Source: Betaproteobacteria bacterium (lineage in GTDB: Bacteria; Pseudomonadota; Gammaproteobacteria; Burkholderiales; Ga0077523). Taken from it: a stretch of DNA of 64,000 nt. The notes under the pieces are model-generated. The model was given only the letters and a program-made list of their open reading frames with translations, did no database searches and was not told the DNA's origin. The position numbers were made by a program, and so were the translations under genes. Positions within the stretch are counted from its first letter, which is position 1. Each line of letters starts with the position of its first letter. The stretch lies in NCBI GenBank assembly GCA_037141795.1, contig JBAXBV010000012.1, positions 1,987-65,986 of the forward strand. Reading direction: 5' to 3'. Of the stretch, positions 36,658 through 57,585 are shown one piece after another.

Positions 36658-36748
36658 GGTGGACTCCTCCCGTGGCGGGCCGGAACTGCCGCGCCTGCGG
36701 CCGACATGGTGCCACGAAACGGCGGTCCGCAGCCCCGCGGGGGGGGCC

Positions 36749-38481: not shown

Positions 38482-38523
38482 GGGATCTCCCGGGGATGCG
38501 CAATCGATGGGGCGGGGGCTGTC

Positions 38524-39300: not shown

Positions 39301-39941
39301 CAGCCCTCCTCCAGGACACGCACCAGGTCGTCCACGGCCGCCACGGCGCCGAAGACGCCGCCTTCGACCCCGATCATGCGCAGCGCCGCATCGTGGAGAT
39401 CGGGGTAGGCGGAGGCACAGGCATCGGCCAGGGTGATGCAGCGGAAGCCGCGGTCGATGGCCGTGCGCAGCGTCGAACTCACGCATACCTCGGTGGTGAT
39501 GCCGCAGAGGATCAGCGTGCGGATGCCGCGGGCGAGGAGCATCGAGCCCAGCGCCGTACCCTCGAACGCGGAGAATCCGGGCTTGTCGATGGCGATCTCC
39601 CCGGTTCGGGGCGCCAGTTCGTCGATGATCCCCGCCCCGGGTTCCCCGCGGATCAGCAGCCTCCCGAGCGGTCCGTCGCTGCCGACGGGGGCGCCGGTGC
39701 GCGCGGTGGCATCCCGGAAGGCGGGCGGCACGTCCGAGAGGTCCGGCGCGTTGGCCTCGCGGGTGTGCACGATCACGATGCCGGCTTCCCGGGCCGCCTT
39801 CAGGATTCGCGCGACGCCGGGGATCGCCCGCCGCAGCAGTGTGATGTCGAGTCCGGCCTTCGCAGCGTACCCGCGGGGGTCGAGGAAGTCGCGCTGCATG
39901 TCGATGACGATGAGCGCGGTGCTCTGCCAGTCGAGGTTCAT
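39300..39941 (-). CDS. Isochorismatase-family cysteine hydrolase (N-carbamoylsarcosine amidase/nicotinamidase-like)
   Basis: 213 aa. Asp-Lys-Cys triad context: LIVIDMQRDF, IDKPGFSAF, CGITTEVCVSST. Confidence 0.85.
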   Translation of the reverse strand: MNLDWQSTALIVIDMQRDFLDPRGYAAKAGLDITLLRRAIPGVARILKAAREAGIVIVHTREANAPDLSDVPPAFRDATARTGAPVGSDGPLGRLLIRGEPGAGIIDELAPRTGEIAIDKPGFSAFEGTALGSMLLARGIRTLILCGITTEVCVSSTLRTAIDRGFRCITLADACASAYPDLHDAALRMIGVEGGVFGAVAAVDDLVRVLEEG

Positions 39942-39971
39942 GGTGGGCTCCGTGGTGGCTCTCTTCGGTGG

Positions 39972-40742
39972 TCAGTCGAACTCCCGGCGCACCGCGTGGG
40001 CGATCTGTTCCGTGAGTTCATCCACCATCAGGTCTCCCTTCTCCCGCGACGCCGCCCGGGCCGACGACAGCACGCCGGAGGGGGGCACCAGTTCCGTCTG
40101 TGGCGGGTACATCTCGTAGGGCGGGAAGTTCGCGGGGCCGTCGTCGGGGATGAGGTCGAGCCGGACGAGGTCGGGGTGGTAGTGCAGCATCATGGAGGTC
40201 TCCAGCACCGCCGCGTGTTCCAGCGCGTAGCCGGGGAAGCCCTCGGGAAAGATCTTCGAGAGGGTCGGGGCGGTGAAGAAGTCCCAGTAGTCCATGCGCA
40301 TGATGGACAGGGGTGGCGTGGCGCCGAATTCGCGCATGGCGAGATCGATGCCTTCGATGAGGAACCACTGATTCTCGTAGTGGCCGTTGCACAGCACCAG
40401 TTTCTTCACGCCGTGGCGGGCGAATTCCCGGACGGTGTCGCGGACCTGTGCCACGAGCGTGGCACCGTCCAGACTGGTGGTACCGCAGAAGTGCTGCCCG
40501 CCGCCGCACTTGGGCTGGGACTTGAAGCCGTAGGCCAGCGGCGGGGCGACGATGCCCGACACGGCCGAGGCGACGCTCTGGGCCACGGCCGTGGCGAGGA
40601 GGTGGTCGGTGCCGAGGGGAAGGTGGGGGCCGTGCTGCTCGGTGGCGCCGCAGGGCAGGAACACCACCGGCTCGTCCCGCTGGACGCGGTCTCGGTAGTC
40701 GGTCCAGCTCATGCGGTTCATCAGGACTTCTTTCGTGCTCAT
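39972..40742 (-). CDS. Creatininase-family amidohydrolase
   Basis: Last 256 aa of ORF 39972..41594(-), starting MSTKEVLMNRMSW. Family motif GATEQHGPHLPLGTD and later NGHYEN. The ATG overlaps the upstream stop (ATGA). Confidence 0.85.
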   Translation of the reverse strand: MSTKEVLMNRMSWTDYRDRVQRDEPVVFLPCGATEQHGPHLPLGTDHLLATAVAQSVASAVSGIVAPPLAYGFKSQPKCGGGQHFCGTTSLDGATLVAQVRDTVREFARHGVKKLVLCNGHYENQWFLIEGIDLAMREFGATPPLSIMRMDYWDFFTAPTLSKIFPEGFPGYALEHAAVLETSMMLHYHPDLVRLDLIPDDGPANFPPYEMYPPQTELVPPSGVLSSARAASREKGDLMVDELTEQIAHAVRREFD

Positions 40743-41653
40743 GGCGACCTCGTGGTTCGTGGGAGAGTGGTGTCGGCGGGTGGGGGCGGGTCGACGGAGA
40801 ACGCTTCCAGCAGTGCGGCGGACGTGATGAGGGCGGCCCCGGCCCACCCGCCGGCGTCCAGCCGCTCGCCGGAGATCAGCATGGCCGAGGCCACGGCTGT
40901 CAGCAGTTCGAAGATGACCAGCACGGCGGCGCGTCCCGCCTCGAGATTGGAGACGCCGTAGGTCTGGGTGCCCATGGCGGCCGTCAACCACAGGCCGGCG
41001 AACGCCGCCAGGCCTGCAGCAAGCCCGGCGGAGATGGGGGGCAGGCCGTGGCGTGCCACGGGAATCAGGGCGGCCCCCACCACGGCGCACCCGACGAAGG
41101 CGATGAGGGTCTTGGGCAGCACCGGCACGCGGTCGGAGGCCCGGGCGCAGATGTTCTGGGACGCGTAGAACAGGCCGGCCCCCACCGCCGCGAGATCGAG
41201 CAGGCCGGGGGGTTGCGCCAGGATGGCCGGGCCGCCCAGCACCAGAAAGGCCCCGGCGATGGCCAGCACCGCACCGGCGGCCCGCAGTCTGGTGATGCGC
41301 TCGCCCAGGAACAGGCGCCCGCCCAGCACGCCCCACACGGGCACGAGGTAGAAAAGCAGCATGGACCGGGCGACCTCGCCGAACATGACGGCGGTGGTGA
41401 AGCACGCATTGGCGAGCCCGCAGAAGGCGGCTGCCCCGGCCACCAGCCGCCACTGCGGCAGCCACTGGAGCCGCAGGCGGAAGATCCACGGCAGCGCCAC
41501 GACACCCACCAGCCCGTAAGTGCAGAGCGTCATGGTGAGGCCCGTGAGCCCCTGGGACGCGAAGTGCTTGAGGGGGATCCAGGCGGTCCCCCACAGGACG
41601 CCGCTCAGCAGCAGCGACAGGACGGCGAGACCCGGTGCCCCCGCGCCGGTCAC
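40739..41653 (-). CDS. EamA/DMT family transporter
   Basis: 304 aa with about 10 TM segments. Confidence 0.8.
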   Translation of the reverse strand: MTGAGAPGLAVLSLLLSGVLWGTAWIPLKHFASQGLTGLTMTLCTYGLVGVVALPWIFRLRLQWLPQWRLVAGAAAFCGLANACFTTAVMFGEVARSMLLFYLVPVWGVLGGRLFLGERITRLRAAGAVLAIAGAFLVLGGPAILAQPPGLLDLAAVGAGLFYASQNICARASDRVPVLPKTLIAFVGCAVVGAALIPVARHGLPPISAGLAAGLAAFAGLWLTAAMGTQTYGVSNLEAGRAAVLVIFELLTAVASAMLISGERLDAGGWAGAALITSAALLEAFSVDPPPPADTTLPRTTRSP

Positions 41654-41654
41654 G

Positions 41655-42686
41655 TCAGACGACCGTCAGGAACGACACGCCGTGCGCGCCCATGAAGCCG
41701 TCGGCGCGCCGGGGGCCGGCGCGGACGCTGCCGTAGTCCTCTCCGAGCACCCGGTTGACGCGGTTGCGGTGGAACGTGCGCAGCAATTCCCGCAGGGGCA
41801 ACAGACAGGGCGTGGCATCGCCGTAGAGTTCGCGGTGCAGGGCGGGCAGGCGGTACCAGGGTACCGACGCGCGCTCGTGGTGGGCGTTGTGGTAGCCGAA
41901 GTTGAGCGTGAGGAGGTTCAGCACAGGGTGGCGGGTGGACACCACGTTGGAGTAGGTGTTGGCCTGCTCGAAGGCGCGGTCCCGGCCGTTCATGGGCACC
42001 TCGACGTTCTCGTCGCTGGTGAAGTACTGGTCGAAGGTGTGGTGGAAGGCGTCGAAGAAATTGAGCGTGGTGAGCAGCAGCCAGTAGGCCGCGGCGTAGC
42101 CGGCGAGTGCCCAGGGCGAGACGACCCAGAGCGCCGCGAACAGGGCGAGACGGCTGATCAGGACCGCCAGCACCCGGCCGCGCCGGTCCCGCTCCCGGGC
42201 GTGGGTGAACGGCCGCCAGAGCAGCTGGGCGTGCATGAGCATTTCGACGGCGGGCACGTGGGCCCACTCGAGGGTGCGCACCAGCCGGCGCAGCGCGGGG
42301 TGACGCTGCAGCAGAGCCTTGTAGTCGAACACGGTGACGTCCGCGCGGTCCCGGTGGTGGCGCAGGTGCATGTGACGGATGCGCTCGAAGGACGCGTAGG
42401 CCGCCCCGCAGATCCAGCCGGCGAGCTCGCCCGTCAGGCGGTTGTGCCGGGGGTCGCGGAACAGGGTGAAGTGCGCCGCTTCGTGAATGAGATACGCAGC
42501 GATGACCATGGTGTGGGCGCACAGCAATATCCCGGCCATCACCGGCAGCACGGACGGGCGGGTCAGCAGGATCAGGGCGAGCAGGTGGCCGAGGGTGACG
42601 TAGCCGATCGCCAGCGAATTGGGCAGGACGCCTTCGCGTTCGCGCATCAGACCCCGATAGGGCATGTCCCGGGTTGCTTGTGGCAT
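41655..42686 (-). CDS. Integral-membrane fatty-acid-desaturase-superfamily di-iron protein (paralogue A)
   Basis: His boxes HEAAH, HLRHH, HNAHH, with hydrophobic segments between them. Ends GVSFLTVV. By alignment with paralogue B the true start may be the internal MREREG (42647). Confidence 0.8.
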   Translation of the reverse strand: MPQATRDMPYRGLMREREGVLPNSLAIGYVTLGHLLALILLTRPSVLPVMAGILLCAHTMVIAAYLIHEAAHFTLFRDPRHNRLTGELAGWICGAAYASFERIRHMHLRHHRDRADVTVFDYKALLQRHPALRRLVRTLEWAHVPAVEMLMHAQLLWRPFTHARERDRRGRVLAVLISRLALFAALWVVSPWALAGYAAAYWLLLTTLNFFDAFHHTFDQYFTSDENVEVPMNGRDRAFEQANTYSNVVSTRHPVLNLLTLNFGYHNAHHERASVPWYRLPALHRELYGDATPCLLPLRELLRTFHRNRVNRVLGEDYGSVRAGPRRADGFMGAHGVSFLTVV

Positions 42687-42812: not shown

Positions 42813-43280
42813 ATGAGCGAGGGCAGACGCAACGCGTCCTCGGGGCGGGCGCGGGTCTCCGCCGGAGAGGCGGCCGGGGGCGTGGGCAAGGCTGGTGCAG
42901 GCAGGGCCGGCGCGCGTTCCGTCGCGGTGCGTGAAGTCGGCCGGCGGACCCGCTTTCTTCGTGGCCTGAGGGAACTGGACACGGCCTGGGTCGAGTCCTT
43001 TCACGAGACCGGCCTGTCGGATGTCTATTTCTCCCGCCTGTTCACGGAACTGTGGCTGCGCGGGGACATGCCGGTTCCGAAGACCGATGCCTACAGCTAC
43101 GTGAAGGGCGTCGGGGTGCAGACCGCCATGAAGTACGTGAAGCGCGCGATCGACCAGGGCTACCTGGAGGAACTCGACAACCCCGCCGACGGCCGGTCCC
43201 GGCTGATCCGGATGACTCCCCGGTTGCGGACCGCTTTCGAGTCGGTCATCGACCGCGCGGCGGCAGCCTTCGGCCTCTGA
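42813..43280 (+). CDS. MarR-like winged-helix regulator (divergent from the desaturase cluster)
   Basis: In-frame tail of ORF 41520..43280(+). GVQTAMKYVKRAIDQGYLEELDNPADGRSRLIRMTPRL resembles a MarR recognition helix plus wing. The N-terminal 40 aa are low-complexity, so the start is uncertain. Confidence 0.55.
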   Translation: MSEGRRNASSGRARVSAGEAAGGVGKAGAGRAGARSVAVREVGRRTRFLRGLRELDTAWVESFHETGLSDVYFSRLFTELWLRGDMPVPKTDAYSYVKGVGVQTAMKYVKRAIDQGYLEELDNPADGRSRLIRMTPRLRTAFESVIDRAAAAFGL

Positions 43281-43489: not shown

Positions 43490-45088
43490 ATGTTCAATCG
43501 TTCCATTCTCGCGACCGCCGTCGTGGCCGCCCTGGCGTCCATGGCGGGACAGGCGGCCCACGCTGCCACCGGACCCAGCAGTTCCCAGACGCCCTACATC
43601 ACCCCGACTGCCGCCGGCTGGTCGGTGACCTCGATCCTGACGGTGGGCGATTCCGTCAACAACAAGCCCGATGGCACGCCGTACAGGATGGTGGGCATCC
43701 CCGATGGCCTCGGTGCCTATGACAGCGGAGTGAAGAGCTTCGGTGGCGTCGACTACGACACGGTCACGGTGCTGATGGCTCACGAACTCGGGAGCTCCTC
43801 CGGCATCACCCGGGCGCACGGGGCGGCAGGCGCCTTCGTCTCCGAGTGGGTGATCAGCAAGAGCGATTTCCGGGTCCTGAACGGTAGCGACCTGATCACC
43901 TCGCATCAGGTCGCGACCGGGTCGGGTACCTGGGGCGCCGCATCCGGGGCCGCCAACAGTTTCAATCGCTTCTGCTCTGCGGACCTGCCCGCCGTGTCCG
44001 CCCTCTACAACGCGGCGACCGGCCTCGGCACCCAGGCCCGAATCTTCATGAACGGCGAGGAAGCTGGCGCCGAAGGTCGCGCCTACGGCATCGTCGCGAC
44101 CGGCTCCGACAAGGGCAAGGCCTACCAGCTGCCGAGCCTCGGGCGCTTTTCCTGGGAGAACTCGCTTGCCAACCCCTATTCCGGAAACCGCACCGTGGTG
44201 ATCGGCACGGATGACAGCTCTCCCGGTCAGGTGTACCTGTACGTGGGCAACAAGAGCAACACCGGCAACGAGATCCAGAAGGCGGGCCTCGACGGGGGGT
44301 CCCTCTACGGTATCGCGGTGGCCGGCAAGCCCACCGAGACGAACAACGCGATCCCCGCCACGGGGTCGTTCACGGCGGTCGCCCTGAGCAACAACCAGTG
44401 GAACAGCACGGGAGCCAGTCTGCAGACCGAGAGCACCACCAAGGGCGTCACCGAGTTTGCTCGTCCCGAGGACGGCCACTGGGCAGACGAGAAGACCTTC
44501 TACTTCGTCACCACGGGGCGCAGCACGGTGCAGGGCAAGCTCTACAAGATGGACTTCAATGCCACCCTCGGCGACGGCTCGGTGGATTACACGCAGGGCG
44601 CAATCTCCGTGATTCTCGACTCCACCAATGTCACCGGCAAGGATGGGGCCAAGGTAACCATCGCCGGCTTCGACAACATGACGGTGACCAACGACGGGAA
44701 GATCATCATCCAGGACGATCCCGGCAACAACGCCTACAACGCGAAGACCTGGCTGGTGGACCCGAGTACCGGTGCCTACGAGCAGATCTTCGAGTCCGAT
44801 CGGACGCGGTTCGGGACGTCCCAGGCGGGTAATGCGCTCCCGGCAACGGCACCCTTCAGCACCGATGAGGAAAACTCGGGCGTGATCGAGGTCACGGACG
44901 TGCTGAACCGCAACGACGGCAACCGCTATTTCCTGGGCGTGATGCAGGCCCACTACGGGATCAGCGGCGAACTCGTGGAGGGCGGCCAGCTTTACGTGAT
45001 GGCCGTGCCGGAACCGGAAACCTACGCCCTGATGGGGGCCGGTCTCGGCCTGCTGGGTGTTGTCGCCCGGCGTCGCCGGAAGGCCTGA
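43490..45088 (+). CDS. Secreted PEP-CTERM-anchored protein, PhoX/DUF839 (COG3211)-like beta-propeller
   Basis: Tail of ORF 43052..45088, starting MFNRSILATAVVAALASMAGQAAHA (signal peptide). GIPDGLGAY...LMAHEL, GRFSWEN, RPEDGHW, FDNMTV...IIQDDPGNN resemble PhoX-family blocks. C-terminal VPEPETYALMGAGLGLLGVVARRRRKA is a PEP-CTERM sorting signal. Confidence 0.75.
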   Translation: MFNRSILATAVVAALASMAGQAAHAATGPSSSQTPYITPTAAGWSVTSILTVGDSVNNKPDGTPYRMVGIPDGLGAYDSGVKSFGGVDYDTVTVLMAHELGSSSGITRAHGAAGAFVSEWVISKSDFRVLNGSDLITSHQVATGSGTWGAASGAANSFNRFCSADLPAVSALYNAATGLGTQARIFMNGEEAGAEGRAYGIVATGSDKGKAYQLPSLGRFSWENSLANPYSGNRTVVIGTDDSSPGQVYLYVGNKSNTGNEIQKAGLDGGSLYGIAVAGKPTETNNAIPATGSFTAVALSNNQWNSTGASLQTESTTKGVTEFARPEDGHWADEKTFYFVTTGRSTVQGKLYKMDFNATLGDGSVDYTQGAISVILDSTNVTGKDGAKVTIAGFDNMTVTNDGKIIIQDDPGNNAYNAKTWLVDPSTGAYEQIFESDRTRFGTSQAGNALPATAPFSTDEENSGVIEVTDVLNRNDGNRYFLGVMQAHYGISGELVEGGQLYVMAVPEPETYALMGAGLGLLGVVARRRRKA

Positions 45089-45111: not shown

Positions 45112-45141
45112 GGGGGACGTCCACGGGCGTTCCCCGTTTTT
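45112..45141 (+). terminator. Rho-independent terminator after the PEP-CTERM gene
   Basis: GGGGGACG-tccacggg-CGTTCCCC (8 bp including one G-U), followed by G-TTTTT. Lies 24 nt after the stop. Confidence 0.55.
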
Positions 45142-45168: not shown

Positions 45169-45963
45169 TTAGTGCATCAGCTCGCCGTTGCTCGCGACCA
45201 GCGACTGGCCGGTGATGGCCCTCGCGTCGTCCGAGGCGAGGAACAGGTAGACGCCGGCGATGTCCGCGGGCTCGAGCAGGGTCGGGAAGGCCTGCGACGC
45301 GAGGATTTCCTGCAGCAGGACGTCTTCGGACACGCCGCGCTCCCCGGCCATGGCCGCGAGCGAGCGCATCGAGGCCTCGGTGCGCACCCAGCCGGGACAG
45401 ACCGCGTTGACCCGAATGCCGCGCGGCGCGAGTTCCCGTGCGAGGGATCGGGTGAGGCCCAGGACCGCGTGCTTGCTGGCCACGTAGGCGGAGAATCCGC
45501 CCACGGCCGTGTGGCCCCAGATCGAGGACTGATTGATGATGCTGCCGCCTGGTCGCAGGTGCGGCAGCAGCGCGCGGGTGATTCGCAGCATCGAGGTCAC
45601 GTTGTTGTCCATCAGCCACTGCCAGCGGTCCATGGCCTCGGGGCGGGAGTCGTCCACGGGCGTGGGGTATTCGGTGCCCGCGTTGTTGACGAGCACGCCC
45701 ACGTGGCCGAGTGCCTGCGCGATGTCCGCCTGGACCCGCCGGACGTCGGCGTCGGTGTTGAGATCGGCGCTGAAGCCGTGGACCTCGGCCTGCCCGGACA
45801 GCGCGCGGGCCGCGTCGGCCACCCGGCTGGCGTCCCGATCCAAGAGGGCGAGGCGGGCGCCCTGTGCCGCGAAGGCCGTGGCGATGCCCCGGCCGATGCC
45901 TGTCGCCGCCCCGGTGATGACTACCGGGACATTGTCGAGGCCGTAGCGGGGGGAGGTGGACAC
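45169..45963 (-). CDS. Short-chain dehydrogenase/reductase (SDR)
   Basis: 264 aa. TGAATGIGRGIA and YVASKHAV motifs. Begins 13 nt after the desaturase-like gene. Confidence 0.9.
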   Translation of the reverse strand: MSTSPRYGLDNVPVVITGAATGIGRGIATAFAAQGARLALLDRDASRVADAARALSGQAEVHGFSADLNTDADVRRVQADIAQALGHVGVLVNNAGTEYPTPVDDSRPEAMDRWQWLMDNNVTSMLRITRALLPHLRPGGSIINQSSIWGHTAVGGFSAYVASKHAVLGLTRSLARELAPRGIRVNAVCPGWVRTEASMRSLAAMAGERGVSEDVLLQEILASQAFPTLLEPADIAGVYLFLASDDARAITGQSLVASNGELMH

Positions 45964-45976
45964 GACGCCGTGCGCC

Positions 45977-46981
45977 TCAGACCGCCGTGAGGAACGAGAC
46001 GCCTACCGCGCCGAGGAAGCGATCGGCCTTGCCCGGCCCGTCGCCCACCTCGCCGTAGTCGCTTGCCAGGACCCGGCGTACGCGGTCGCGGTGGTATCCG
46101 CGCAGCAGTTCCCGCATGGGAATCACCTGCCGGTACGCGCCGGGGAACAGCTGCTCGTGCAGCGCCGGCAACTCGTGCCACGCGGCAATGGGGCGTTCGT
46201 GGTGGGCGTTGTGGTAGGAGAAATTGAGCAGCAGCAGGTTGAGCCACGGGTGGCCCGCGGAGACGAGGTTCGAGTAGGTGTTGGCCTGCTCGTAGGCGCG
46301 GTCCCGCACCTTGTCGCCGGGGATTTCGCTGCCCTCGGGACCCGCGAAGGCGTCGTAGGTGTGCTGGTAGGCGTCGGCGAAGCGCAGCGCGTGCAGCATG
46401 AGGAGATAGGCCACGCCGTACAGCACGAGGGCCCGCGGGCTCAGCCAGGCCAGGGCGGCGAACGCGGCAATCCGCACGGCCAGCACCAGCACCACGCGCA
46501 GGCGGCCGTCACGGTGACCGGGGTCCAGGAAAGGCAGCGCGATCACGTAGCCGTGCATGAGGAACTCGACGGCAGGAATCCACGCCCACTCCAGGGCGAG
46601 CACCAGCCTGCGCAGCCACGCGGGCCAGCCATTCAGCACCTGACGGTATTCGACGGACACCACGTCCGCCCGGTCCAGGTGGTGGCGCATGTGCTTGCGC
46701 CGCAGGTTCGCGAAGCTGGCATAGGCGCTCCCGGTGACCCAGGTCATGAGGGTGCCCCACCGGTTGTTCGCCCCGGCCGTGCGGAACACCGACTGGTGGG
46801 CGAACTCGTGCAGGAAATACGCGGCGTAGACGAGGGTGTGGGCCGTCAGGAGCACGCCGAGCGCGTTCCAGCCCCAGTGGTCCGCCACGAGCAGGCACAC
46901 GCCCGCGGCATAGCCCGCCAGCGTGTAGGCCAGGGCAACGGTGTTGGGCAGCGCGCCCGTGTCGGATCGGAAAATCTTCAT
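45977..46981 (-). CDS. Integral-membrane fatty-acid-desaturase-superfamily di-iron protein (paralogue B)
   Basis: Track ORF 45977..47068(-), which has a GTG start. ATG at 46981 (MKIFRSDTGALPNTVALAY) aligns with paralogue A. His boxes HEFAH, HMRHH, HNAHH. Ends GVSFLTAV. Confidence 0.8.
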   Translation of the reverse strand: MKIFRSDTGALPNTVALAYTLAGYAAGVCLLVADHWGWNALGVLLTAHTLVYAAYFLHEFAHQSVFRTAGANNRWGTLMTWVTGSAYASFANLRRKHMRHHLDRADVVSVEYRQVLNGWPAWLRRLVLALEWAWIPAVEFLMHGYVIALPFLDPGHRDGRLRVVLVLAVRIAAFAALAWLSPRALVLYGVAYLLMLHALRFADAYQHTYDAFAGPEGSEIPGDKVRDRAYEQANTYSNLVSAGHPWLNLLLLNFSYHNAHHERPIAAWHELPALHEQLFPGAYRQVIPMRELLRGYHRDRVRRVLASDYGEVGDGPGKADRFLGAVGVSFLTAV

Positions 46982-47075
46982 CTCGCCCTGTCTCGCGGAA
47001 GGAATGACTGCGCCTTTCGACGCGCCGGCGGGCTTGGTGTTCCCGCGCCGCCGGCGCACCCGTGTCACCGGGCGG

Positions 47076-48077
47076 TCACTTCGCCATCGTGGCGGCGATG
47101 CTGCCGTCCATCGTGTCCTCGGTCTTCGGGATCGCCTTGATCTCGCCCTTGGCCTTGAGAATCTTCGAGATCACGGCACCACTGCCGAACAGGGACGTGG
47201 TCTCGGCACTCTTGGCGAAGACCTTCGGAAACTCCTGCGGGGTCAGGTTGTACACGCCGGACAGCTGCTCGAGGACTTCCTTGTCGCTGATCCCCATCAC
47301 CTTGCCGATCAGCTTGGCGGCCTCGGCGGGGCTCTTCTTCATGTACTCCAGCCCGTCGATGTAGCCCTGGATGAGCGCCTTGACCGCGGCCGGGTTCTTC
47401 TTGATGTACTCGCTCTTGAACACGAGCACGTCGGTGATGAGCCCGGGGGCATCCTTGGAGGAGAAGACCACGTGGAATTTCTTGCCGCCGTCCATGGCCA
47501 CGATCTCGGAGACGCTGGGCTCGTACGTCACGCCGATCTTGACGCCACCGGAGGCGAGACCTGCCGGCACGCCCTCGGGCGGCATGTTCACGGGCTTGAT
47601 GTCCGACTCGGACAGCTTGTTGGTCTGCAGGGCGTAGGACAGCAGGAAGTCGGAGGGCGACAGGGGGTTGTAGGCGATCTTCTGCCCCTTGAACTGGGCC
47701 ACGGAGGTGATGTCCTTGGTGGCCACGATGGCGTCGCCGCCGTTGGAGTAGTCGATGGGCATGACCACCTTCATGGAAGAGCCCTTGGCCACGGAACTGA
47801 CCACCTGGTCGTAGGTGATCATGCCGCCGTCCACGGAACCGCCGGTCACGGCGGGCGGGATGAGGGCGGGGTCGTTGAAGATCTGCATGGTGACCTTCAC
47901 GCCCGATTTCTTGAAGAGATCCAGCTGGTCGGCCACATAGAACGGGCCGTAGCCGATCCAGATCACGGTGCCCACCTTGATCGGGGTCGCCGCAAAGGCG
48001 GCGGCGGACAGCACAGACCCGGCAAGGCAGGCAAGAGCCAGCCCGGTCCGGCGCAGCAGGGAAGACGAAGTCAGCAT
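47076..48077 (-). CDS. NitT/TauT-family ABC transporter substrate-binding protein (riboswitch-controlled; probable guanidine-binding component)
   Basis: 333 aa with signal peptide. VIWIGYGPFYVAD...ITYDQ...SPSDFLL...IGVTYEP. AGGAG SD 3 nt plus upstream. Preceded by ykkC copy B. Confidence 0.85.
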   Translation of the reverse strand: MLTSSSLLRRTGLALACLAGSVLSAAAFAATPIKVGTVIWIGYGPFYVADQLDLFKKSGVKVTMQIFNDPALIPPAVTGGSVDGGMITYDQVVSSVAKGSSMKVVMPIDYSNGGDAIVATKDITSVAQFKGQKIAYNPLSPSDFLLSYALQTNKLSESDIKPVNMPPEGVPAGLASGGVKIGVTYEPSVSEIVAMDGGKKFHVVFSSKDAPGLITDVLVFKSEYIKKNPAAVKALIQGYIDGLEYMKKSPAEAAKLIGKVMGISDKEVLEQLSGVYNLTPQEFPKVFAKSAETTSLFGSGAVISKILKAKGEIKAIPKTEDTMDGSIAATMAK

Positions 48078-48120
48078 GATGGAGCTCCTGGGTTGGGAAA
48101 CATGGCACGGGAGCCGTCTC

Positions 48121-48227
48121 GCTCTCCCGGGCTTTTATCCCTCCGTGGAGCTCCGTGAACCCGGAGCCGGGCCGCTCTCGGACCAGACGCCCTCGCTCAG
48201 CGCGATGGCCGGAACCCTAGCTGCCCT
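48121..48227 (-). promoter_or_regulatory. Guanidine-I (ykkC subtype 1) riboswitch, copy B
   Basis: The - strand reads GGGCAGCTAGGGTTCCGG...CTGGTCCGAGAGCGGCCC...CCACGGAGGGATAAAAGCCCGGGAGAGC. The three invariant ykkC blocks and a P1 closing helix are present. Confidence 0.8.
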
Positions 48228-48280
48228 CGACGATGTCCCGCGGGTGGCCACGAGACGACTTGCCGTTCGATCCCTCTTTC

Positions 48281-48577: not shown

Positions 48578-48622
48578 ACATCCGGAGCAAGAGAGGAGCG
48601 CACGACTGTGGCTCTTGTCGTT

Positions 48623-48722
48623 GTCGGCTAGGGTTCCGGGCGCGTCGAGCGCTGGCTGGTCCGAGAGCCGACGGTCCCGCCGTTCACCGCGGGGCTCCAC
48701 GGAGGGATAAAAGCCCGGGAGG
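48623..48722 (+). promoter_or_regulatory. Guanidine-I (ykkC subtype 1) riboswitch, copy A
   Basis: GTCGGCTAGGGTTCCGG...CTGGTCCGAGAGCCGAC...CCACGGAGGGATAAAAGCCCGGGAGG. P1 is GUCGGC/GCCGAC. All conserved blocks are present. Confidence 0.85.
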
Positions 48723-48754
48723 CCGAGTCGTTCGTCTGGTCCTCTCCCCTTTTT
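48717..48754 (+). terminator. Riboswitch A expression platform: candidate intrinsic terminator
   Basis: GGGAGG (3' end of the aptamer) can pair with TCTCCC (48743..48748), and is followed by C-TTTTT (48750..48754). Confidence 0.5.
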
Positions 48755-48868
48755 CCGTTTCCACAGTGGAGTCCGCGATGTCCGCACGCCGCAGCCCCCG
48801 TCGTCCTTCCCCCGCCCCGCGGGCTTTCCTTGCCGCCTCCGGCGCGGCCTGAAGGGAGGACCGACGCC

Positions 48869-49684
48869 ATGTCGAACCCTGCCTCCTCCGCCCGCCCGGG
48901 CCTGTGGTCCATCCGCGGACCCATGAGCCAGCGGCGCTACTGGGTGCTGGCCGCCGTGGGCCTCATCCTGCCGATGGTCGCCTGGTGGCTGGTGGCCAAC
49001 TCGGGGTGGGTCGAGAAGGTCTTCATGCCTGCCCCGGATGCGGTCTGGTCCCGGACCGTCCTGTGGTTCGACGAGGACCATCTCATGGCGGACATGGCGA
49101 TCAGCATCTACCGGGTCACGGCCGGATGGGCGCTCTCCGCGGTGATCGCGCTGCCCCTGGGGCTGCTCATCGGAACCTTCCGGCCGGTCCAGGCGCTGCT
49201 CGAGCCGCTCACGGATTTCGTCCGCTACATGCCGGCGGTGGCGTTCATCCCGCTGGTCATGCTCTGGGTGGGGATCGACGAGGGGTCGAAGATCACCATC
49301 ATCTTCATCGGCACCTTCTTCCAGATGGTGCTGATGGTGGCCGAGGACGTGCGTCGCGTGCCCACGCCGCAGATCGAGGCCGCGCAGACCATGGGAGCCA
49401 CCCGGTCCGAGATCATCCAGCTCGTGCTGCTGCCGTCCGCCAAGCCGGCTCTGGTCGACACGATGCGGGTGACGATGGGCTGGGCGTGGACCTACCTGGT
49501 GGTGGCGGAACTCGTGGCCGCGAACTCCGGGCTTGGCTACGCCATCCTCAAGGCGCAGCGCTTCCTCCAGACCGACAAGATCTTTGCGGGCATCATCCTG
49601 ATCGGCCTGATCGGCCTGGTGACCGATCAGCTCTTCCGCTTCTGCCACCGTAAGGCGTTTCCATGGATGCATCTCAAGTCGTGA
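48869..49684 (+). CDS. NitT/TauT-family ABC transporter permease
   Basis: Track ORF 48830..49684, with start moved to MSNPASS after a GAAGGGAGGA SD. Six TM segments. EAA-type loop IEAAQTMGATRSEIIQLVLLPSAKPAL. Confidence 0.85.
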   Translation: MSNPASSARPGLWSIRGPMSQRRYWVLAAVGLILPMVAWWLVANSGWVEKVFMPAPDAVWSRTVLWFDEDHLMADMAISIYRVTAGWALSAVIALPLGLLIGTFRPVQALLEPLTDFVRYMPAVAFIPLVMLWVGIDEGSKITIIFIGTFFQMVLMVAEDVRRVPTPQIEAAQTMGATRSEIIQLVLLPSAKPALVDTMRVTMGWAWTYLVVAELVAANSGLGYAILKAQRFLQTDKIFAGIILIGLIGLVTDQLFRFCHRKAFPWMHLKS

Positions 49685-50529
49685 GCCCCGATCCGAAGAT
49701 CCGCATCCGCGGCCTCGGCAAGACCTTCGAGGGCGCCCAGAAGGTCGTGGCCCTGGACAACATCGACCTCGATGTCCGGGAGAACGAATTCGTGACCCTC
49801 GTGGGCGCCTCGGGCTGCGGCAAGTCCACGCTGCTGCGGATCATCGGCGGGCTCGAGTATCACACCGCCGGCAGCGTGGTGGCGGGCGGCCGGACCGTCT
49901 CGGGGGCGGGCGCGGATCGCGCGATGGTGTTCCAGCACTACAGCCTGTATCCGTGGCTCGACGTGATGGACAACATCCGCTTCTCCCGCCGGCTGCGCGT
50001 CAATCGCGAGAACCTCACCTCGGCCGACGTCGAGCGCGCGAGCGGCCGGGCGGAGGCGCTGCTGAACCTCATGGGCCTGTCGTCCATGGCGCGCGCGTTC
50101 CCGAGCCAGCTGTCCGGGGGGATGCAGCAGCGCGTGGCCATTGCCCGGGCCCTCATGCCGCGGCCGGAGATCCTCCTCATGGACGAGCCCTTCGGGGCCC
50201 TCGACGCGCAGACGCGGGAGGTCATGCACGACCTCATCCTGCACGTGTTCAAGCTCGAGCGGGCCACGATCGTGTTCGTGACCCACGATGTGGAAGAGGC
50301 CATCTACCTCGGGCAGCGGGTGGTGCTGCTGGCGCCGCGGCCGGGCCGCATCGACACGATCTACGAGCCGCCCCTGAAGGGTCCTCGGCACCAGGACATG
50401 AAGCACTCGCGCGAGTTTCTCGACATGAAGAAGGAGATCCTCGAGCGGATCCGCGAGACCTCGGGCATGAAGACCGACTCGGGCCTGCTCGCCCAGATGT
50501 CCCGCTCCGCCGGCCACGACGGCGCCTGA
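49663..50529 (+). CDS. ABC transporter ATP-binding protein
   Basis: Walker A GASGCGKST, signature LSGGMQQRVAIARAL, Walker B ILLMDEP. Overlaps the permease 3' end. Confidence 0.9.
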   Translation: MDASQVVSPDPKIRIRGLGKTFEGAQKVVALDNIDLDVRENEFVTLVGASGCGKSTLLRIIGGLEYHTAGSVVAGGRTVSGAGADRAMVFQHYSLYPWLDVMDNIRFSRRLRVNRENLTSADVERASGRAEALLNLMGLSSMARAFPSQLSGGMQQRVAIARALMPRPEILLMDEPFGALDAQTREVMHDLILHVFKLERATIVFVTHDVEEAIYLGQRVVLLAPRPGRIDTIYEPPLKGPRHQDMKHSREFLDMKKEILERIRETSGMKTDSGLLAQMSRSAGHDGA

Positions 50530-50560
50530 ACGCAACCCGGAACACCCAGGAGAACCCGTG

Positions 50561-51298
50561 ATGACCGACGACAACGACAGCCCTCCGGGTGCCGTGCTCT
50601 GGGAGGAAACCATTCCCGGCGGCGCTCACTGGTCGGGCGTGGTCCGGCGCGGTGTGGCGCTTCGCCTGACCGACCTGCGCGGTCGCGCGAACGCGGCCAT
50701 GCTGATCTTCAACCACGAGGAGCGGTTCGAGCGCTACAACATGCCCGATACCCTCAAGTCCCAGCACACCGCGTTCCTCACCCGCGGCAACGTGCTGCAC
50801 TCGGACATGGGCCGCGCCATGGCGTCGGTGATCGCGGACACCTGCGGCTGGCACGACACGATCTGCGGGGTGATGGATGACGCGACGCTCGCGGGACGCT
50901 ACGGGGCGAGGCGCTACCAGGAACACCGCAACGGCATGACCCGCAGCGGCCGGGAGGGCTTCCTCAAGGAACTGGCGCGTTCGGGTCTGGGCGGGCGGGA
51001 CCTGCACGCCAACGTCAACTGGTTCAGCAAGCTCGTGGCGGATGCCGACGGCGCGCTGCATTTCGACACCGGGCACCGGGCTCCCGGGCAGTACGTGGAC
51101 CTGCGCTTCGACATGGATGCGCTGGTGGTGATCTCCACCTGCCCGCACCCCCTCGATCCCGCGACGGTCTGGGACCCCGCGCCAGTGGGCATGGCGGCCT
51201 GGCGCTGCGGGCTCCCCGGCGCGGACGATTCATGCCGCCTGCACCGGCCGGAGAACGGCCGGGCCCTCACGAACACCGAGCGGTACTTCGCGCACTGA
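50561..51298 (+). CDS. DUF1989 'urea carboxylase-associated protein' (carboxyguanidine deiminase CgdA/B-type subunit)
   Basis: Starts [31 protein letters not shown]...DTLKSQHTA...[15 protein letters not shown]. Located directly upstream of the carboxylase. Confidence 0.85.
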
Positions 51299-51353
51299 AC
51301 GCAGGCGGTGGCCGGGCGCTGCCCGGCCACGCTTCGAGCCAAGGGAGGACATC

Positions 51354-51995
51354 ATGCTGATCGAGAGCACTCGCGACCCCGCCGGGGCGGTCGTGGACGA
51401 GATCTGTGCGGCGGGCGAGCCGTGGATGCGCGTGATCCGGAAGGGTCAGGTGTTCCGCATCCTCGACCTGGAGGGAAACCAGGCGGTGGACACGCTGTTC
51501 TACAGCGCCGCGGACCGGGAGGACCGCTACAGCGCCGTGGACACCATCCAGCGCAACGGCAACCTCTACCTCACGGCCGGGACCCGGCTCTATTCCACAT
51601 CGGGAGCGGTGATGCTCACGATCGTGGCCGACACCTGCGGCCGTCACGACACCCTGGGCGGGGCGTGTTCGCAGGAGAGCAACACGGTGCGCTACGCACT
51701 CGACAAGCGCTTCATGCACGCCTGTCGGGACAATTTCATGTCCGCCATCTGTCACCACCCCGAGCACGGGCTGGAGAAGCGGGACATCACCCACAACATC
51801 AACTTCTTCATGAACGTGCCGGTGACGCCGACGGGCGGGCTCACCTTCGAGGATGGGATCTCGGCACCCGGCAAGTACGTGGAGATGCGCGCGGAGATGG
51901 ACGTCGTGTGCCTCATCTCCAACTGCCCCCAGCTCAACAATCCCTGCAACGCCTACAACCCGACCCCGATCCGGCTGCTCGTCTGGAACGGCTGA
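51354..51995 (+). CDS. DUF1989 'urea carboxylase-associated protein' (second CgdA/B-type subunit)
   Basis: 213 aa. [23 protein letters not shown]...[18 protein letters not shown]. Paralogous fold to the preceding gene. Confidence 0.85.
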
Positions 51996-52028
51996 GCCCA
52001 CCGCCCGGCCGTCCCCCGCCCCTCCGCC

Positions 52029-55000
52029 ATGTTCACGAAAGTCCTCATCGCCAACCGCGGCGCGATCGCGTGCCGCATCATCCGCACCCTGCGGTCCATG
52101 GGAATCGCCTCCGTGGCGGTCTACTCCGAGGCCGACCGTGCCTCACGCCACGTGTCCGAGGCGGACGAGGCCGTCTGCCTGGGGCCGGCGCCGGCCGCGC
52201 AGAGCTATCTCCGGGTGGACCGCATTCTCGAGGCCGCCCGGTCGACGGGCGCCCAGGCCATCCACCCCGGTTACGGATTCCTGTCCGAGAACGCCGACTT
52301 CGCCCAGGCCTGCGCCGACGCGGGGCTGGTGTTCATCGGCCCGGCTCCGGCCCACATGCGGGCCTTCGGACTGAAGCACGAGGCGCGCGCCCTGGCGCAG
52401 GCCAGCGGGGTGCCGCTGCTGCCCGGTTCGGGGCTGCTGGCGGATCCGGGCAACGCCCGCGCCGAGGCACGCCGCATCGGCTATCCGGTCATGCTCAAGA
52501 GCACGGGCGGTGGCGGCGGCATCGGCATGCGGCTGGTATGGAGCGAGGACGAACTCGGCGAGGCCTTCGAGTCGGTGGCGCGGCTCGCCCGCGCGAACTT
52601 CAAGGACGCCGGCATGTTCCTCGAGAAGTTCGTGGCGCAGGCCCGGCACATCGAGGTGCAGATCTTCGGCGATGGTCGTGGTCACGTGGTGGCCCTGGGC
52701 GAGCGCGACTGCTCCGTGCAGCGGCGCAACCAGAAGGTGATCGAGGAAACGCCCGCCCCGGGCCTCGCGGCGGATACGCGGGAGCGCCTGCTGGCCACGG
52801 CAGTGGCGCTGGGATCCGCGGTGGGGTACGCGTCGGCGGGAACGGTCGAGTTCGTGCTCGATGCCGAGACCGGCGAGTTCCACTTCCTCGAGGTCAACAC
52901 GCGGCTGCAGGTGGAGCACGGGGTCACCGAGGAGGTGACCGGCATCGATCTGGTGGAGTGGATGGTGCGTCAGGCCGCGGGGGAGCTCGACCTGTCGGAC
53001 TTTCGCGCCGCGCCGGCGGGGGCGTCGATCCAGGTGCGCCTGTACGCCGAGGATCCCGCGAAGAACTTCCAGCCCTCGAGCGGGGTGCTCACCGCGGCGG
53101 AGTTTCCGCCCGGGGTACGGGTGGAGACCTGGGTCCAGCGGGGCACCGAGGTGCCGCCGAACTACGACCCGATGATCGCCAAGGTTCTGGTGCGCGCCCC
53201 CGACCGCGCGGCCGCCATCGCCGCGATGGGCGCAGCGCTGGACGGCACGGCCGTGGCCGGCATCGAGACCAACCTGGAGTACCTGCGCCAGGTGATCGCG
53301 TCGCCCACCTTCCGCGAGGGTCGCCAGACCACCCGCTTTCTCGGGAGCTTCCACTACCGGCCTGCCACCATCGACGTGCTCGAGCCGGGCGTGCAGACCA
53401 CGGTGCAGGACTGGCCCGGGCGGGTGGGGTACTGGGCAGTGGGGGTGCCGCCCTCGGGACCCATGGACAGTCTCGCCCTGAGGCTGGCCAACCGGCTGCT
53501 GGGCAATGCCGAGGGCGCAGCCGCCCTCGAATGCACGGCGAGCGGGCCCACGCTGCGCTTCCAGCAGGACACGGTGATCGCGCTCTGCGGCGCGGCCATG
53601 TCCGCCGAACTCGACGGCGAGCCGGTGCCGCTCTGGCGCACCCGCGCGGTGGCGGCCGGCAGCGTGCTGCGGCTGGGCCGGATCGAGGGGGCGGGGCTGC
53701 GGACCTACCTCGCGGTGGCGGGCGGGTTCGCGGTGCCCGACTATCTCGGCTCGAAGTCCACCTTCACCCTGGGCCAGTTCGGCGGCCACGCCGGGCGCAC
53801 GCTGCGGGCGGGTGACGTGCTGCCGCTCGTGAAGGGGCAGGCGCTTCCGGCGCGGAATGTCCTGCGCCCGGACCTGGTGCCCGTTTATTCGCACCGCTGG
53901 GAGATCGGTGTCCTCTACGGCCCCCACGGCGCACCGGATTTCTTCACGCCAGCGGACATCGACATGTTCTTCGGCACGGACTGGGAGGTGCACTACAACT
54001 CCAGCCGTACCGGGGTGCGCCTCATCGGGCCGCGCCCGCAGTGGGCGCGCAGCGACGGCGGCGAGGCGGGACTGCATCCGTCCAACATCCACGACAACGC
54101 CTACGCAATCGGGGCCATCGATTTCACCGGCGACATGCCGGTGATCCTCGGTCCGGATGGTCCCAGCCTGGGGGGCTTCGTCTGCCCTGCCGTCATCGCC
54201 GATACGGAGCTCTGGAAGGTCGGGCAGCTGCGGCCCGGGGACTCGGTGCGGTTCGTCCGGGTCGGGCAGGCCTGGGCGGCGCGCCAGGAGGCCGTGGCGG
54301 AGAGGACCCTGGCGCGGTTGCGCCGGCCCGCGAGCGAGCCGCGCCCGGCGGCGGAGCGCCTGCCTTCGCCCGTGCTGCACCGGGTCGAAGCGTCCGGGTC
54401 CCGACCGGCGGTGGTGTACCGGCAGTCCGGCGACAAGTGGCTGCTGGTCGAATACGGCGACCTGACCCTGGACATCGCGCTGCGCTTCCGGGTCCACTCC
54501 CTGATGACGTGGCTCGAGGCCCGCCAGGTACCGGAGATCGTGGATCTCACGCCGGGCATCCGGTCCCTGCAGGTGCACTTCGACAACCGGCGCCTGCCGC
54601 TCGAGCGCCTGCTGCGGCTGCTGGAGGCGGCGGAGCAGGAACTTCCGGACGTGGATGATCTGGTGGTGCCCGCCCGCACGGTCCACCTGCCCTTGTCCTG
54701 GGACGACCCGGCGACCCGGCTCGCCATCGAGAAATACACTCAGTCCGTGCGGCGGGACGCTCCCTGGTGCCCGAGCAACATCGAGTTCATCCGTCGCATC
54801 AACGGCCTCGACAGCATCGACGAAGTACGGCGCATCGTCTTCGACGCCTCGTACCTGGTGCTCGGCCTGGGCGATGTCTACCTCGGGGCGCCGGTCGCGA
54901 CGCCCGTCGACCCGCGGCATCGGCTGGTGACCACCAAGTACAACCCGGCGCGCACCTGGACGCCGGAGAATGCCGTGGGCATCGGCGGGGCCTACCTGTG

Positions 55001-55628: not shown

Positions 55629-55683
55629 ACATGACGGGGGTGCGCTGCGCGGCCCCGGCCCACAGGATGATCGGAACGCACCC

Positions 55684-57486: not shown

Positions 57487-57585
57487 CCCGGCGGGTCCAG
57501 CGCGAAAGCGGGCGGCCGCCCCTGACTTTCGTCGGGTCGACGGGGGCGGTTACGCGGTAGCATGCGCGCTCCGGAAGGGGGTGGC

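Follow-up and report, generated by a model that had tools for sequence, protein, structure and literature searches.

We analysed a 64,000-nucleotide stretch of DNA from a Betaproteobacteria bacterium (the window), in which a guanidine-I riboswitch leads a unit encoding a binding protein (SBP), a membrane desaturase-like protein (DES) and a short-chain dehydrogenase (SDR). In many bacteria DES sits in a guanidine-sensing operon with a guanidine-releasing lyase adjacent, and because of this placement its probable role is not lipid modification but the dealkylation of creatine-like compounds, which would supply nitrogen in the form of guanidine. We put the odds slightly above even (roughly 55%), on the strength of sequence comparisons, that the cluster serves to release guanidine from N-substituted or cyclic guanidines, with DES acting as an O2-dependent hydroxylase and the guanidine carboxylase pathway assimilating the product.

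The riboswitch-B unit

Aptamer B matches the RF00442 covariance model over its full length (model positions 1-107) with 83 bits against a gathering score of 63, and scores 105.6 bits with our own covariance model R1 (Table 1). The guanidine specificity of guanidine-I riboswitches has been established experimentally for another member (PMC12508155). The minimum-free-energy fold has GGAGCUCC of the aptamer base-paired to the Shine-Dalgarno region, GGAGCUCC (48081-48088), and the predicted off state would sequester the SBP ribosome-binding site. SBP falls below the cut-off of the equivalog for uca-associated binding proteins (TIGR03427, 105 vs 334). The divergent riboswitch-A operon contains no binding-protein gene itself and therefore presumably relies on SBP and/or its paralogue SBP3.

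DES scores 103.5 bits against the FA_desaturase family (gathering score 29.7), and its start at the ATG at 46981 fits the length of its homologues (334-338 aa). It has four membrane-spanning segments and three His boxes, HEFAH (58-62), HMRHH (97-101) and HNAHH (257-261), which are invariant in 71 homologues. Their spacing (HX3-4H, HX2-3HH, HX2-3HH) and their positions, behind TM2, ahead of TM3 and close to the C-terminus, are those that the superfamily requires. The motifs suggest a di-iron centre and O2-dependent catalysis. A role as a non-catalytic transporter accessory was rejected because every His box is invariant.

The AlphaFold2 model of DES (pLDDT 87) resembles desaturase-like chains and AlkB with TM-scores of 0.41-0.58. 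Foldseek gave only 0.41 for AlkB (E 0.05-0.12), which is too low to class DES as an AlkB-type alkane hydroxylase. A DES-family profile search of the PDB returned no relevant match to a solved desaturase or AlkB. The NCBIfam equivalogs of the lipid desaturases DesA and DesB scored 15.2 and 12.7 bits (cut-offs 500), and the model of the arginine hydroxylase GntB (NF041365) did not match DES at E≤0.1; it is matched weakly by 8 of 16 DES-family members. Only 483 cluster representatives among 1.84 billion are DES-like at E≤0.001. Judged by these searches, the DES clade is small and lies far from the lipid desaturases. Homologues at 37-42% identity have genomic contexts that are uninformative or without a guanidine connection.

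SDR starts 13 nt past DES and is a generic classical SDR whose best NCBIfam model is 3-hydroxybutyrate dehydrogenase (TIGR01963, 197.5 vs a cut-off of 307). A terminator scan found no hairpin-plus-T-tract between the SBP, DES and SDR genes. The 94-nt spacer between SBP and DES does hold a strong GC-rich hairpin lacking a T-tract (46975-47085 folds at -52.5 kcal/mol, z-score -2.3). About 45 of 68 related spacers likewise contain hairpins, which differ in sequence and seldom come with T-runs. Such a hairpin may act as an attenuator or an mRNA-stabilising element. The sole nearby hairpin-plus-T-tract lies 32 nt past the SDR stop codon and probably ends the unit. Synteny suggests that SBP, DES and SDR are co-transcribed.

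A sequence-only reading of this DNA had proposed the gene order riboswitch B-SBP-DES-SDR and the three His boxes, which agree with the RF00442 and Pfam matches, the coordinates and the homologues. It assigned the next terminator to the convergent gene, and the terminator scan places that hairpin and its T-run on the + strand. It had also seen no terminator between the genes, which holds for hairpins with T-tracts and overlooks the GC hairpin after SBP. Its three-gene operon contains the right genes, and the cluster continues beyond them at 36749-42686.

Table 1. Features of the guanidine-linked cluster and its surroundings (positions in the window).
Feature	Position	Strand	Evidence or note
Guanidine-I riboswitch A, leader of divergent operon	48617-48723	+	RF00442, 91 bits
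Riboswitch-A operon: permease, ATPase, CgdAB, guanidine carboxylase, allophanate hydrolase	48830-57486		Divergent
Guanidine-I riboswitch aptamer B, leader of SBP-DES-SDR unit	48122-48231	-	RF00442
SBP, NMT1/TauA-type periplasmic substrate-binding protein	47076-48077	-	Pfam NMT1, 81 bits
GC-rich hairpin without T-tract, SBP-DES spacer	~47024-47055	-	Fold of 46975-47085
DES, predicted FA_desaturase-superfamily membrane di-iron oxygenase, 334 aa	45977-46981	-	PF00487
SDR, classical short-chain dehydrogenase, 264 aa	45169-45963	-	adh_short_C2, 190.8 bits
Hairpin between convergent SDR and PhoX-like genes	45123-45137	+	Stem and T-run on + strand (terminator scan)
Small putative winged-helix (MarR-like) regulator, divergent from DES2	42813-43280	+	ORF translation; MarR_2 weak, E 0.005
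DES2, DES paralogue (~52% identity), first gene of second unit	41655-42686	-	PF00487, 118.5 bits
EamA-family transporter	40739-41653	-	Pfam EamA, 84 bits
Creatininase (creatinine amidohydrolase)	39972-40742	-	TIGR04448
IHL, isochorismatase-like cysteine hydrolase, biuret/triuret/guanylurea hydrolase clade	39300-39941	-	Pfam Isochorismatase, 145.7 bits
MBL-fold hydrolase, lactonase-like	38524-39300	-	Lactamase_B, 57 bits
SBP3, NMT1-type binding protein	37474-38481	-	52% identical to SBP
MgdL homologue, N-(hydroxymethyl)guanidine lyase family	36749-37477	-	BLASTP vs V. boliviensis MgdL

The second unit

The cluster resumes on the same strand past an inserted convergent gene. DES2 carries the His boxes HEAAH, HLRHH and HNAHH and matches the GntB model weakly (31.4 bits, cut-off 380). 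Homologues of the putative regulator occupy the equivalent position in four related loci (L002, L004, L033 and L037). A sigma-54 promoter spotted by eye upstream of DES2 was dropped because its spacing is unsuitable.

The creatininase, whose ATG overlaps the stop codon of the EamA gene, is a true equivalog (365 bits vs a cut-off of 235) and matches P. putida creatininase 1J2T with an E-value of 2.8e-80. IHL belongs to the same clade as the biuret hydrolase BiuH while scoring under its cut-off (NF050097, 231.6 vs 370 bits), and the best solved relatives of its orthologue in locus L052 are biuret and triuret hydrolases. The MBL hydrolase matches the AiiA lactonase (E 1e-28). None of DES, SDR, this amidase and the MBL hydrolase reached an NCBIfam equivalog.

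The last gene, whose ATG overlaps the SBP3 stop codon, encodes a homologue of MgdL from Vreelandella boliviensis (33% identity over 235 aa, E 2e-28). The catalytic residues D49 and R51 are invariant in all 49 MgdL homologues compared, and the published MgdL family alignment takes in the same genera (PMC12508155).

The SBP-DES neighbourhood is conserved in three bacterial classes

The comparison took in 80 related loci, drawn from Betaproteobacteria, Gammaproteobacteria and Acidithiobacillia, and used a covariance model to search for aptamers. The SBP gene lies directly 5' of DES in nearly all of them. An aptamer directly precedes SBP-DES at a distance of 78-173 nt in 62 of the 70 loci that could be assessed, and most loci without one adjoin a divergent aptamer or genes for guanidine carboxylase (Gca) or carboxyguanidine deiminase (CgdAB). 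Hosts include Pseudomonas, Stutzerimonas, Halopseudomonas, Paraburkholderia, Thiomonas, Thiobacillus, Acidithiobacillus and many uncultured Burkholderiales.

Downstream genes were counted in the 47 loci whose sequence extends far enough. Of these, 41 have the MgdL homologue and 9 have DES2, and the MBL hydrolase, found in 38 including minimal clusters, belongs to the conserved core. SDR and creatininase occur together in 38 loci, both are missing from 8, and SDR never occurs alone. SDRs track creatininase and not DES as such. In pseudomonads, the block from DES to the MgdL homologue lies between the SBP gene and the permease and ATPase genes on the same strand, with overlapping or 2-nt junctions. 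The smallest cluster, in Acidithiobacillus, comprises SBP, DES, MBL and an MgdL-like gene, with DES as the sole oxygenase. Two Stutzerimonas stutzeri loci (L060 and L075) carry the full cluster, creatininase included.

Halomonas-type loci have Gca-MgdH-MgdL and no DES. An MgdH-like gene is absent from the cluster in 79 of the 80 loci and from that of the window. In locus L006 an MgdH-like dioxygenase gene lies just upstream of the aptamer, and the window holds a truncated MgdH-like gene at 63609-63998, distant from the cluster.

A candidate route to guanidine and its alternatives

The anatomy of the cluster, its homologies and its conserved linkage are established by the comparisons above; we infer the substrates, the reaction order and the electron donor of the following route. 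SBP paralogues and the ABC permease/ATPase would import the substrate. DES, together with DES2 where present, would hydroxylate a carbon bonded to a guanidine nitrogen; examples of such carbons are the N-methyl group in methylguanidine and, in creatine, the N-CH3 or N-CH2 group. The MgdL homologue would cleave the resulting hemiaminal to guanidine and an aldehyde, and guanidine would bind the riboswitch, holding the unit on. An accessory module of creatininase, SDRs, BiuH-like amidase and MBL hydrolase could widen the range to creatinine- and creatine-type substrates and acylguanidine intermediates. Because Halomonas-type loci pair MgdL with MgdH instead, we read DES as a possible non-homologous replacement for the 2-oxoglutarate dioxygenase MgdH that dealkylates methylguanidine, creatine or creatinine. 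Given the MgdH-like gene in L006 and the truncated one in the window, DES may not simply replace MgdH.

Several observations count against this proposal. None of the cluster genes encodes an electron-transfer partner, DES and the MgdL homologue are transcribed separately in the window (DES in the riboswitch unit, the MgdL homologue in the second unit behind a putative regulator), and homologues of DES at ~40% identity also occur outside guanidine contexts. The core MBL hydrolase is not accounted for, and fewer transcripts may read through the GC hairpin that follows SBP.

The closest experimentally characterised counterpart is the riboswitch-controlled methylguanidine demethylation by MgdH/MgdL of V. 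boliviensis (Sinn et al., Nat Commun 2025, PMC12508155). Both systems are guanidine-I riboswitch-controlled loci neighbouring genes for an ABC importer and for the guanidine carboxylase/CgdAB/allophanate hydrolase pathway, and both have an MgdL-family lyase with the same catalytic Asp and Arg. The cluster differs in lacking a 2-oxoglutarate dioxygenase, in having one or two FA_desaturase-family membrane proteins as the presumed oxygenase, and in adding an MBL hydrolase, a BiuH-like amidase, creatininase, SDRs, an EamA transporter and extra binding proteins. Like AlkB and membrane fatty-acid desaturases, DES has a three-His-box di-iron motif and four membrane helices, and its fold is related to theirs; it differs from them in its nitrogen-catabolic context and in lacking a rubredoxin or cytochrome b5 partner. 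DES also shares its superfamily with GntB, the transmembrane L-arginine gamma-hydroxylase of guanitoxin synthesis, whose substrate is a free polar guanidino compound. The superfamily can thus hydroxylate a free guanidino amino acid, although the resemblance is weak (DES2 above) and GntB is cyanobacterial and biosynthetic rather than catabolic. To our knowledge, the other characterised FA_desaturase-superfamily enzymes act on lipophilic substrates, a further point against the proposal.

DES might instead hydroxylate a C-H bond in the ring or side chain of a guanidino compound that is cyclic or larger, leaving only the last step to the MgdL homologue. Candidate substrates would be creatinine at C5 (giving a creatol-like product), glycocyamidine, guanidinohydantoin or arginine/agmatine-type compounds; SDR would oxidise the alcohol, and MBL, creatininase and amidase would yield methylguanidine or guanidine by opening and cleaving the product. 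The strict SDR-creatininase co-occurrence fits this scheme, as do the lactonase-like MBL hydrolase, the biuret/guanylurea hydrolase clade of the amidase and the hydroxylation of an arginine side-chain carbon by GntB. The enzyme converting creatinine to methylguanidine in P. stutzeri is also still unassigned (PMC11764249, PMC12623156), and S. stutzeri has the full cluster. We nevertheless consider the scheme unlikely: minimal clusters without SDRs and creatininase keep DES, MBL and the MgdL homologue, and the ancestral DES role therefore needs no creatinine module.

The remaining explanations appear weaker. Membrane remodelling in response to guanidine, in which DES desaturates or hydroxylates a lipid and SDR oxidises the product as protection from chaotropic guanidinium, would suit the Pfam membership, the four membrane helices and the desaturase/AlkB-like fold. 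Nearly all characterised relatives of DES that we know of likewise have lipid or hydrocarbon substrates. This lipid role, raised by the sequence-only reading, is improbable, as DES accompanies an importer, catabolic genes and the MgdL homologue rather than guanidine (Gdx) exporters or lipid genes, scores just 13-15 bits against lipid desaturase equivalogs, matches no solved desaturase by sequence and belongs to a clade that is tiny beside the lipid desaturases. That DES and SDR are passengers of unrelated function, with the transcript stopping at the post-SBP hairpin or the riboswitch gating SBP translation only, deserves similarly little weight. The strong GC hairpin here and in many relatives, the SBP ribosome-binding site sequestered in the predicted platform and the separate putative regulator of the cluster's second half in this genome are consistent with it; the hairpins, however, lack T-tracts, SBP and DES stay adjacent across the classes compared, and pseudomonads place the transporter permease and ATPase genes downstream of DES on the same strand. 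Finally, DES could N-oxygenate guanidine to hydroxyguanidine as an alternative detoxification or assimilation step. Guanidine is the riboswitch ligand and di-iron enzymes are capable of N-oxygenation, but this would leave the MgdL-type lyase, creatininase and amidases unexplained where a guanidine carboxylase pathway is already there, and we regard it as very improbable.

The MgdL-type lyase, creatininase and amidases of the conserved cluster thus lend comparative support to the oxidative processing of a substituted guanidine, the other explanation offered by the sequence-only reading. That reading had noted that this enzyme family has no described role in guanidine biology, and our literature searches found none: for desaturases linked to guanidine (ykkC) riboswitches, they turned up nothing beyond soluble enzymes of the NapI/EFE type and an unrelated B12-regulated ole1, and no cluster of creatininase, isochorismatase and desaturase was described in the literature searched. 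Its view that either explanation would be new applies to the enzyme family and the larger pathway; oxidative release of guanidine under a riboswitch is already known, since methylguanidine demethylation was published in October 2025 (PMC12508155).

A creatinine-to-methylguanidine route in P. stutzeri goes back to van Eyk 1968, as cited in PMC12623156 and PMC11764249, the latter listing the enzyme as uncharacterised. S. stutzeri strains hold the full cluster with a bona fide creatininase, whereas the reported co-product acetate misfits simple oxidative dealkylation, and the link to the cluster is purely inferential. With somewhat less confidence than an even bet, we suggest from these sequence relationships that DES may represent a new functional class, a membrane di-iron oxidative N-dealkylase acting on water-soluble guanidines. 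With an MgdL-type lyase, creatininase and amidases it would make up a widespread, riboswitch-gated and O2-dependent route from creatinine, creatine and methylguanidine to guanidine that includes the long-orphan P. stutzeri pathway.

Where the guanidine that four riboswitch classes sense comes from in nature is for the most part not yet known. MgdH/MgdL, the only characterised riboswitch-linked module releasing guanidine from substituted guanidines, is limited to few halophiles, and the DES cluster is far more widespread. Several of its hosts are cultured and genetically tractable, making the proposal directly testable. If true, it would give a membrane desaturase-type enzyme a soluble nitrogen-rich substrate, which is rare, offer gene candidates for a step whose enzyme has been on record as uncharacterised since 1968, and tie creatinine and creatine turnover to guanidine assimilation.

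The riboswitch B unit and its expression

The window carries two divergent guanidine-I aptamers, riboswitches A and B. The minus-strand unit behind riboswitch B encodes an NMT1-type binding protein (SBP), an FA_desaturase-family protein with three histidine boxes (DES) and an SDR. This gene order had been described in a sequence-only reading; the analysis confirms it and shows strong conservation. The three boxes named there lie at residues 58-62, 97-101 and 257-261 of DES, flank four hydrophobic segments and are invariant across 71 homologues.

The same reading saw no hairpin with a T-tract at the junctions. A terminator scan likewise detected none between the genes, the sole nearby one (45123-45137) lying between SDR and the convergent gene, but a strong GC hairpin that lacks a T-tract is present in the 94-nt spacer separating SBP from DES. 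About 45 of 68 loci have GC hairpins after SBP; their sequences are unrelated and T-runs are few, as would suit an intercistronic attenuator or stabiliser that keeps SBP more abundant than the products of the downstream genes. When the leader is folded at minimum free energy, the aptamer segment GGAGCUCC pairs with the ribosome-binding-site region of the SBP gene, a palindrome of identical sequence, and this predicted pairing suggests that riboswitch B gates translation, with genes further downstream affected by polarity. Given the hairpin without T-runs and the predicted translational gating, co-transcription of DES and SDR with SBP is likely but unproven.

Riboswitch A runs, across 48724-48830, straight into a permease gene and also leads genes for an ATPase, two DUF1989 proteins (CgdAB), guanidine carboxylase and allophanate hydrolase. 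No gene for a binding protein lies in this operon; unlike the related loci L001-L004 and L008 it lacks a uca-type SBP gene, so its importer presumably uses SBP and/or SBP3, a further NMT1-type protein. Clusters hold up to three NMT1-type paralogues versus one permease/ATPase pair, suggesting that one transporter serves several guanidino substrates. The gene directly after allophanate hydrolase, in the same orientation, encodes an SNF-family sodium:neurotransmitter symporter (57562-58950, +), which may give the guanidine regulon another means of uptake.

Features of the guanidine-linked gene cluster and additional binding-protein paralogues of related loci
Feature	Position	Strand	Remarks
Guanidine-I aptamer A	48617-48723	+	Rfam, 91 bits; divergent from aptamer B
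Guanidine-I aptamer B	48122-48231	-	Rfam, 83 bits
SBP, NMT1-type substrate-binding protein	47076-48077	-	Downstream of minus-strand aptamer
DES, PF00487 FA_desaturase protein	45977-46981	-	Downstream of SBP
SDR, classical	45169-45963	-	Downstream of DES
PhoX-like/PEP-CTERM gene, secreted product	43490-45088	+	Convergent to SDR; start at ~43490 probable, from signal peptide
Small MarR-like ORF	42813-43280	+	Weak MarR-type winged-helix match; divergent from DES2 over AT-rich spacer
DES2, paralogue of DES	41655-42686	-	First listed gene of second part
EamA transporter	between DES2 and creatininase	-
Creatininase	39972-40742	-	True equivalog, 365 bits vs cut-off 235; 1J2T match, E 2.8e-80
BiuH-like isochorismatase-family amidase	39300-39941	-	Biuret/triuret/guanylurea hydrolase clade
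MBL-fold hydrolase	38524-39300	-	Lactonase-like
SBP3, second NMT1 binding protein	37474-38481	-
MgdL homologue	36749-37477	-	242 aa
Extra NMT1-type SBP paralogue	L020 15374-16327
Extra NMT1-type SBP paralogue	L020 18355-19341
Extra NMT1-type SBP paralogue	L002 17957-18985

A probable second unit and its conservation

The sequence-only reading ended at SDR, and the minus-strand cluster resumes beyond the PhoX-like gene with a second set of genes (36749-42686) that are closely packed, with ATGA-type overlaps. The PhoX-like gene occupies the SDR2 position of the relatives L002 and L004, and SDR2 is missing from the window's cluster, which suggests that an insertion or replacement here split the cluster. 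The MarR-like ORF, whose position is conserved in four close relatives, probably encodes the regulator of this second set; since it diverges from DES2, this half is probably its own unit in the window's genome, controlled by a protein regulator. Directly after the MgdL homologue, and in the same orientation, comes a gene for a hybrid histidine kinase with HisKA, HATPase_c and receiver domains (34778-36715, -).

Taking one genome per species, we compared 80 loci with DES relatives (55-74% identity), which span Burkholderiales, Rhodocyclaceae, Thiomonas, Thiobacillus, Sulfuriferula, Gallionellaceae, Acidithiobacillus, Pseudomonas, Halopseudomonas, Stutzerimonas, Paraburkholderia, Marinobacter and Mangrovitalea. 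A covariance model of their aptamers located one 78-173 nt upstream of the SBP preceding DES in 62 of the 70 loci with enough upstream sequence, and most of the other eight adjoin a divergent aptamer or guanidine carboxylase genes. In the 47 loci that extend 7 kb or more downstream, homologues of MgdL (41), amidase (39), creatininase (39), MBL (38), SDR2 (37), EamA (35), SDR (29) and DES2 (9) recur. An SDR gene and creatininase occur together in 38 of these and are both absent from eight, creatininase standing alone once and an SDR gene never; by this co-occurrence the window's SDR is assigned functionally to the creatininase module.

The Halopseudomonas salina array comprises aptamer, SBP, DES, SDR, SDR2, EamA, creatininase, amidase, MBL, MgdL homologue, permease and ATPase, with several junctions of 0-3 nt; permease and ATPase genes end the same-strand array in pseudomonads. 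The minimal cluster, in Acidithiobacillus sulfuriphilus, is SBP-DES-MBL-MgdL homologue, convergent with the carboxylase operon. The full cluster is present in Stutzerimonas stutzeri strains.

DES and the MgdL homologue

The FA_desaturase superfamily is mostly lipid-directed, which is a weakness of the guanidine-directed model proposed below. Lipid desaturase models score DES at about 13-15 bits against cut-offs of 500, it reaches no NCBIfam equivalog, and its sequence matches no solved structure. Among solved structures, its confident AlphaFold2 model (pLDDT 87, pTM 0.89) is closest to desaturase-like chains of the chloroplast Ycf2/Orf2971-FtsHi complex (TM-score 0.58) and to AlkB (0.41). Only 483 of 1.84 billion cluster representatives match DES at E<=0.001, which marks its clade, as far as sequence searches reach, as small and isolated. 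Homologues at 37-42% identity occur in unrelated genomic contexts; the guanidine link is specific to the DES/DES2 clade. At L096 (8001-11182) the genes after a 40%-identity homologue encode an SDR, a GNAT acetyltransferase and a PfkB kinase, and guanidine genes are absent from the vicinity, so the DES-SDR pairing also exists in another small-molecule context.

DES2 and half of the tested DES homologues weakly match the model of GntB (NF041365), the L-arginine gamma-hydroxylase of guanitoxin biosynthesis, a transmembrane enzyme according to its discoverers (PMC10367076). We regard GntB as a precedent rather than as evidence of family membership. A 2025 review (PMC12371840) labels it alpha-ketoglutarate-dependent; given the transmembrane description and the weak matches of FA_desaturase-family proteins, this statement appears to be in error.

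The 242-aa protein at the end of the second unit matches nothing in Pfam or NCBIfam. BLASTP with the sequence in Supplementary Data 1 of PMC12508155 identifies it as a predicted homologue (33% identity over 235 residues, E 2e-28) of MgdL, a recently characterised N-(hydroxymethyl)guanidine lyase from Vreelandella boliviensis. Residues D49 and R51, essential by mutagenesis (PMC12508155), are invariant in 49 of 49 aligned family sequences. The published family alignment already holds members from Acidithiobacillus, Thiomonas, Stutzerimonas and Halopseudomonas, whose genomic context that paper does not discuss.

V. boliviensis produces the hemiaminal with a 2-oxoglutarate dioxygenase, MgdH, encoded in a guanidine-I-controlled carboxylase operon, whose riboswitch binds guanidine (KD 44 uM) and not methylguanidine (PMC12508155). 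The window's cluster is probably likewise a riboswitch-linked guanidine-releasing module; it carries DES, the putative oxygenase, in place of MgdH and a larger, uncharacterised enzyme set. Carboxylase, MgdH and MgdL occur without DES in 13 Halomonas-type metagenome loci, and 79 of the 80 DES loci lack an MgdH-like gene. L006 (6840-8559) is the only one with both oxygenase types as neighbours: genes for an MgdH-like dioxygenase (42% identity, 324 residues) and a DUF1989 protein lie just upstream of the aptamer-SBP-DES array. The window itself ends within a gene for a 2-oxoglutarate/Fe(II) dioxygenase (63609-63998, +), whose first 130 residues, the N-terminal part, share 39% identity with an MgdH homologue of a Halomonas-type locus (E 1.5e-14). 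This gene lies about 6 kb past that for allophanate hydrolase, in neither riboswitch unit, and could encode a second methylguanidine hydroxylase.

A proposed route to guanidine

Two roles had been offered for DES, oxidative processing of a substituted guanidine and guanidine-responsive lipid modification, and the former is the better supported. The SBP paralogues and the ABC transporter would bring in substituted guanidines, DES or DES2 would hydroxylate the carbon adjoining a guanidine nitrogen, and the MgdL homologue would split the hemiaminal into guanidine and an aldehyde. Guanidine would then feed the carboxylase pathway and, via the riboswitch, sustain expression. The true creatininase equivalog and the lack of a creatinase in the cluster suggest creatinine and creatine as upstream substrates; creatine, an N-methyl, N-carboxymethyl guanidine, would yield guanidine by two successive dealkylations. 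The SDRs, BiuH-like amidase and lactonase-like MBL could oxidise hemiaminals or hydrolyse acylguanidines or rings. Against this model, the cluster genes include no redox partner, the core MBL hydrolase is not accounted for, DES and the MgdL homologue lie in different units in the window's genome, and MgdH-like genes occasionally co-occur with DES.

A P. stutzeri route from creatinine to methylguanidine was reported in 1968, and lists continue to mark it as uncharacterised (PMC12623156, PMC11764249). Riboswitch-linked guanidine-releasing modules have recently been described already; the new part here is a probable module of this kind with a different, unexpected putative oxygenase and a larger enzyme set.
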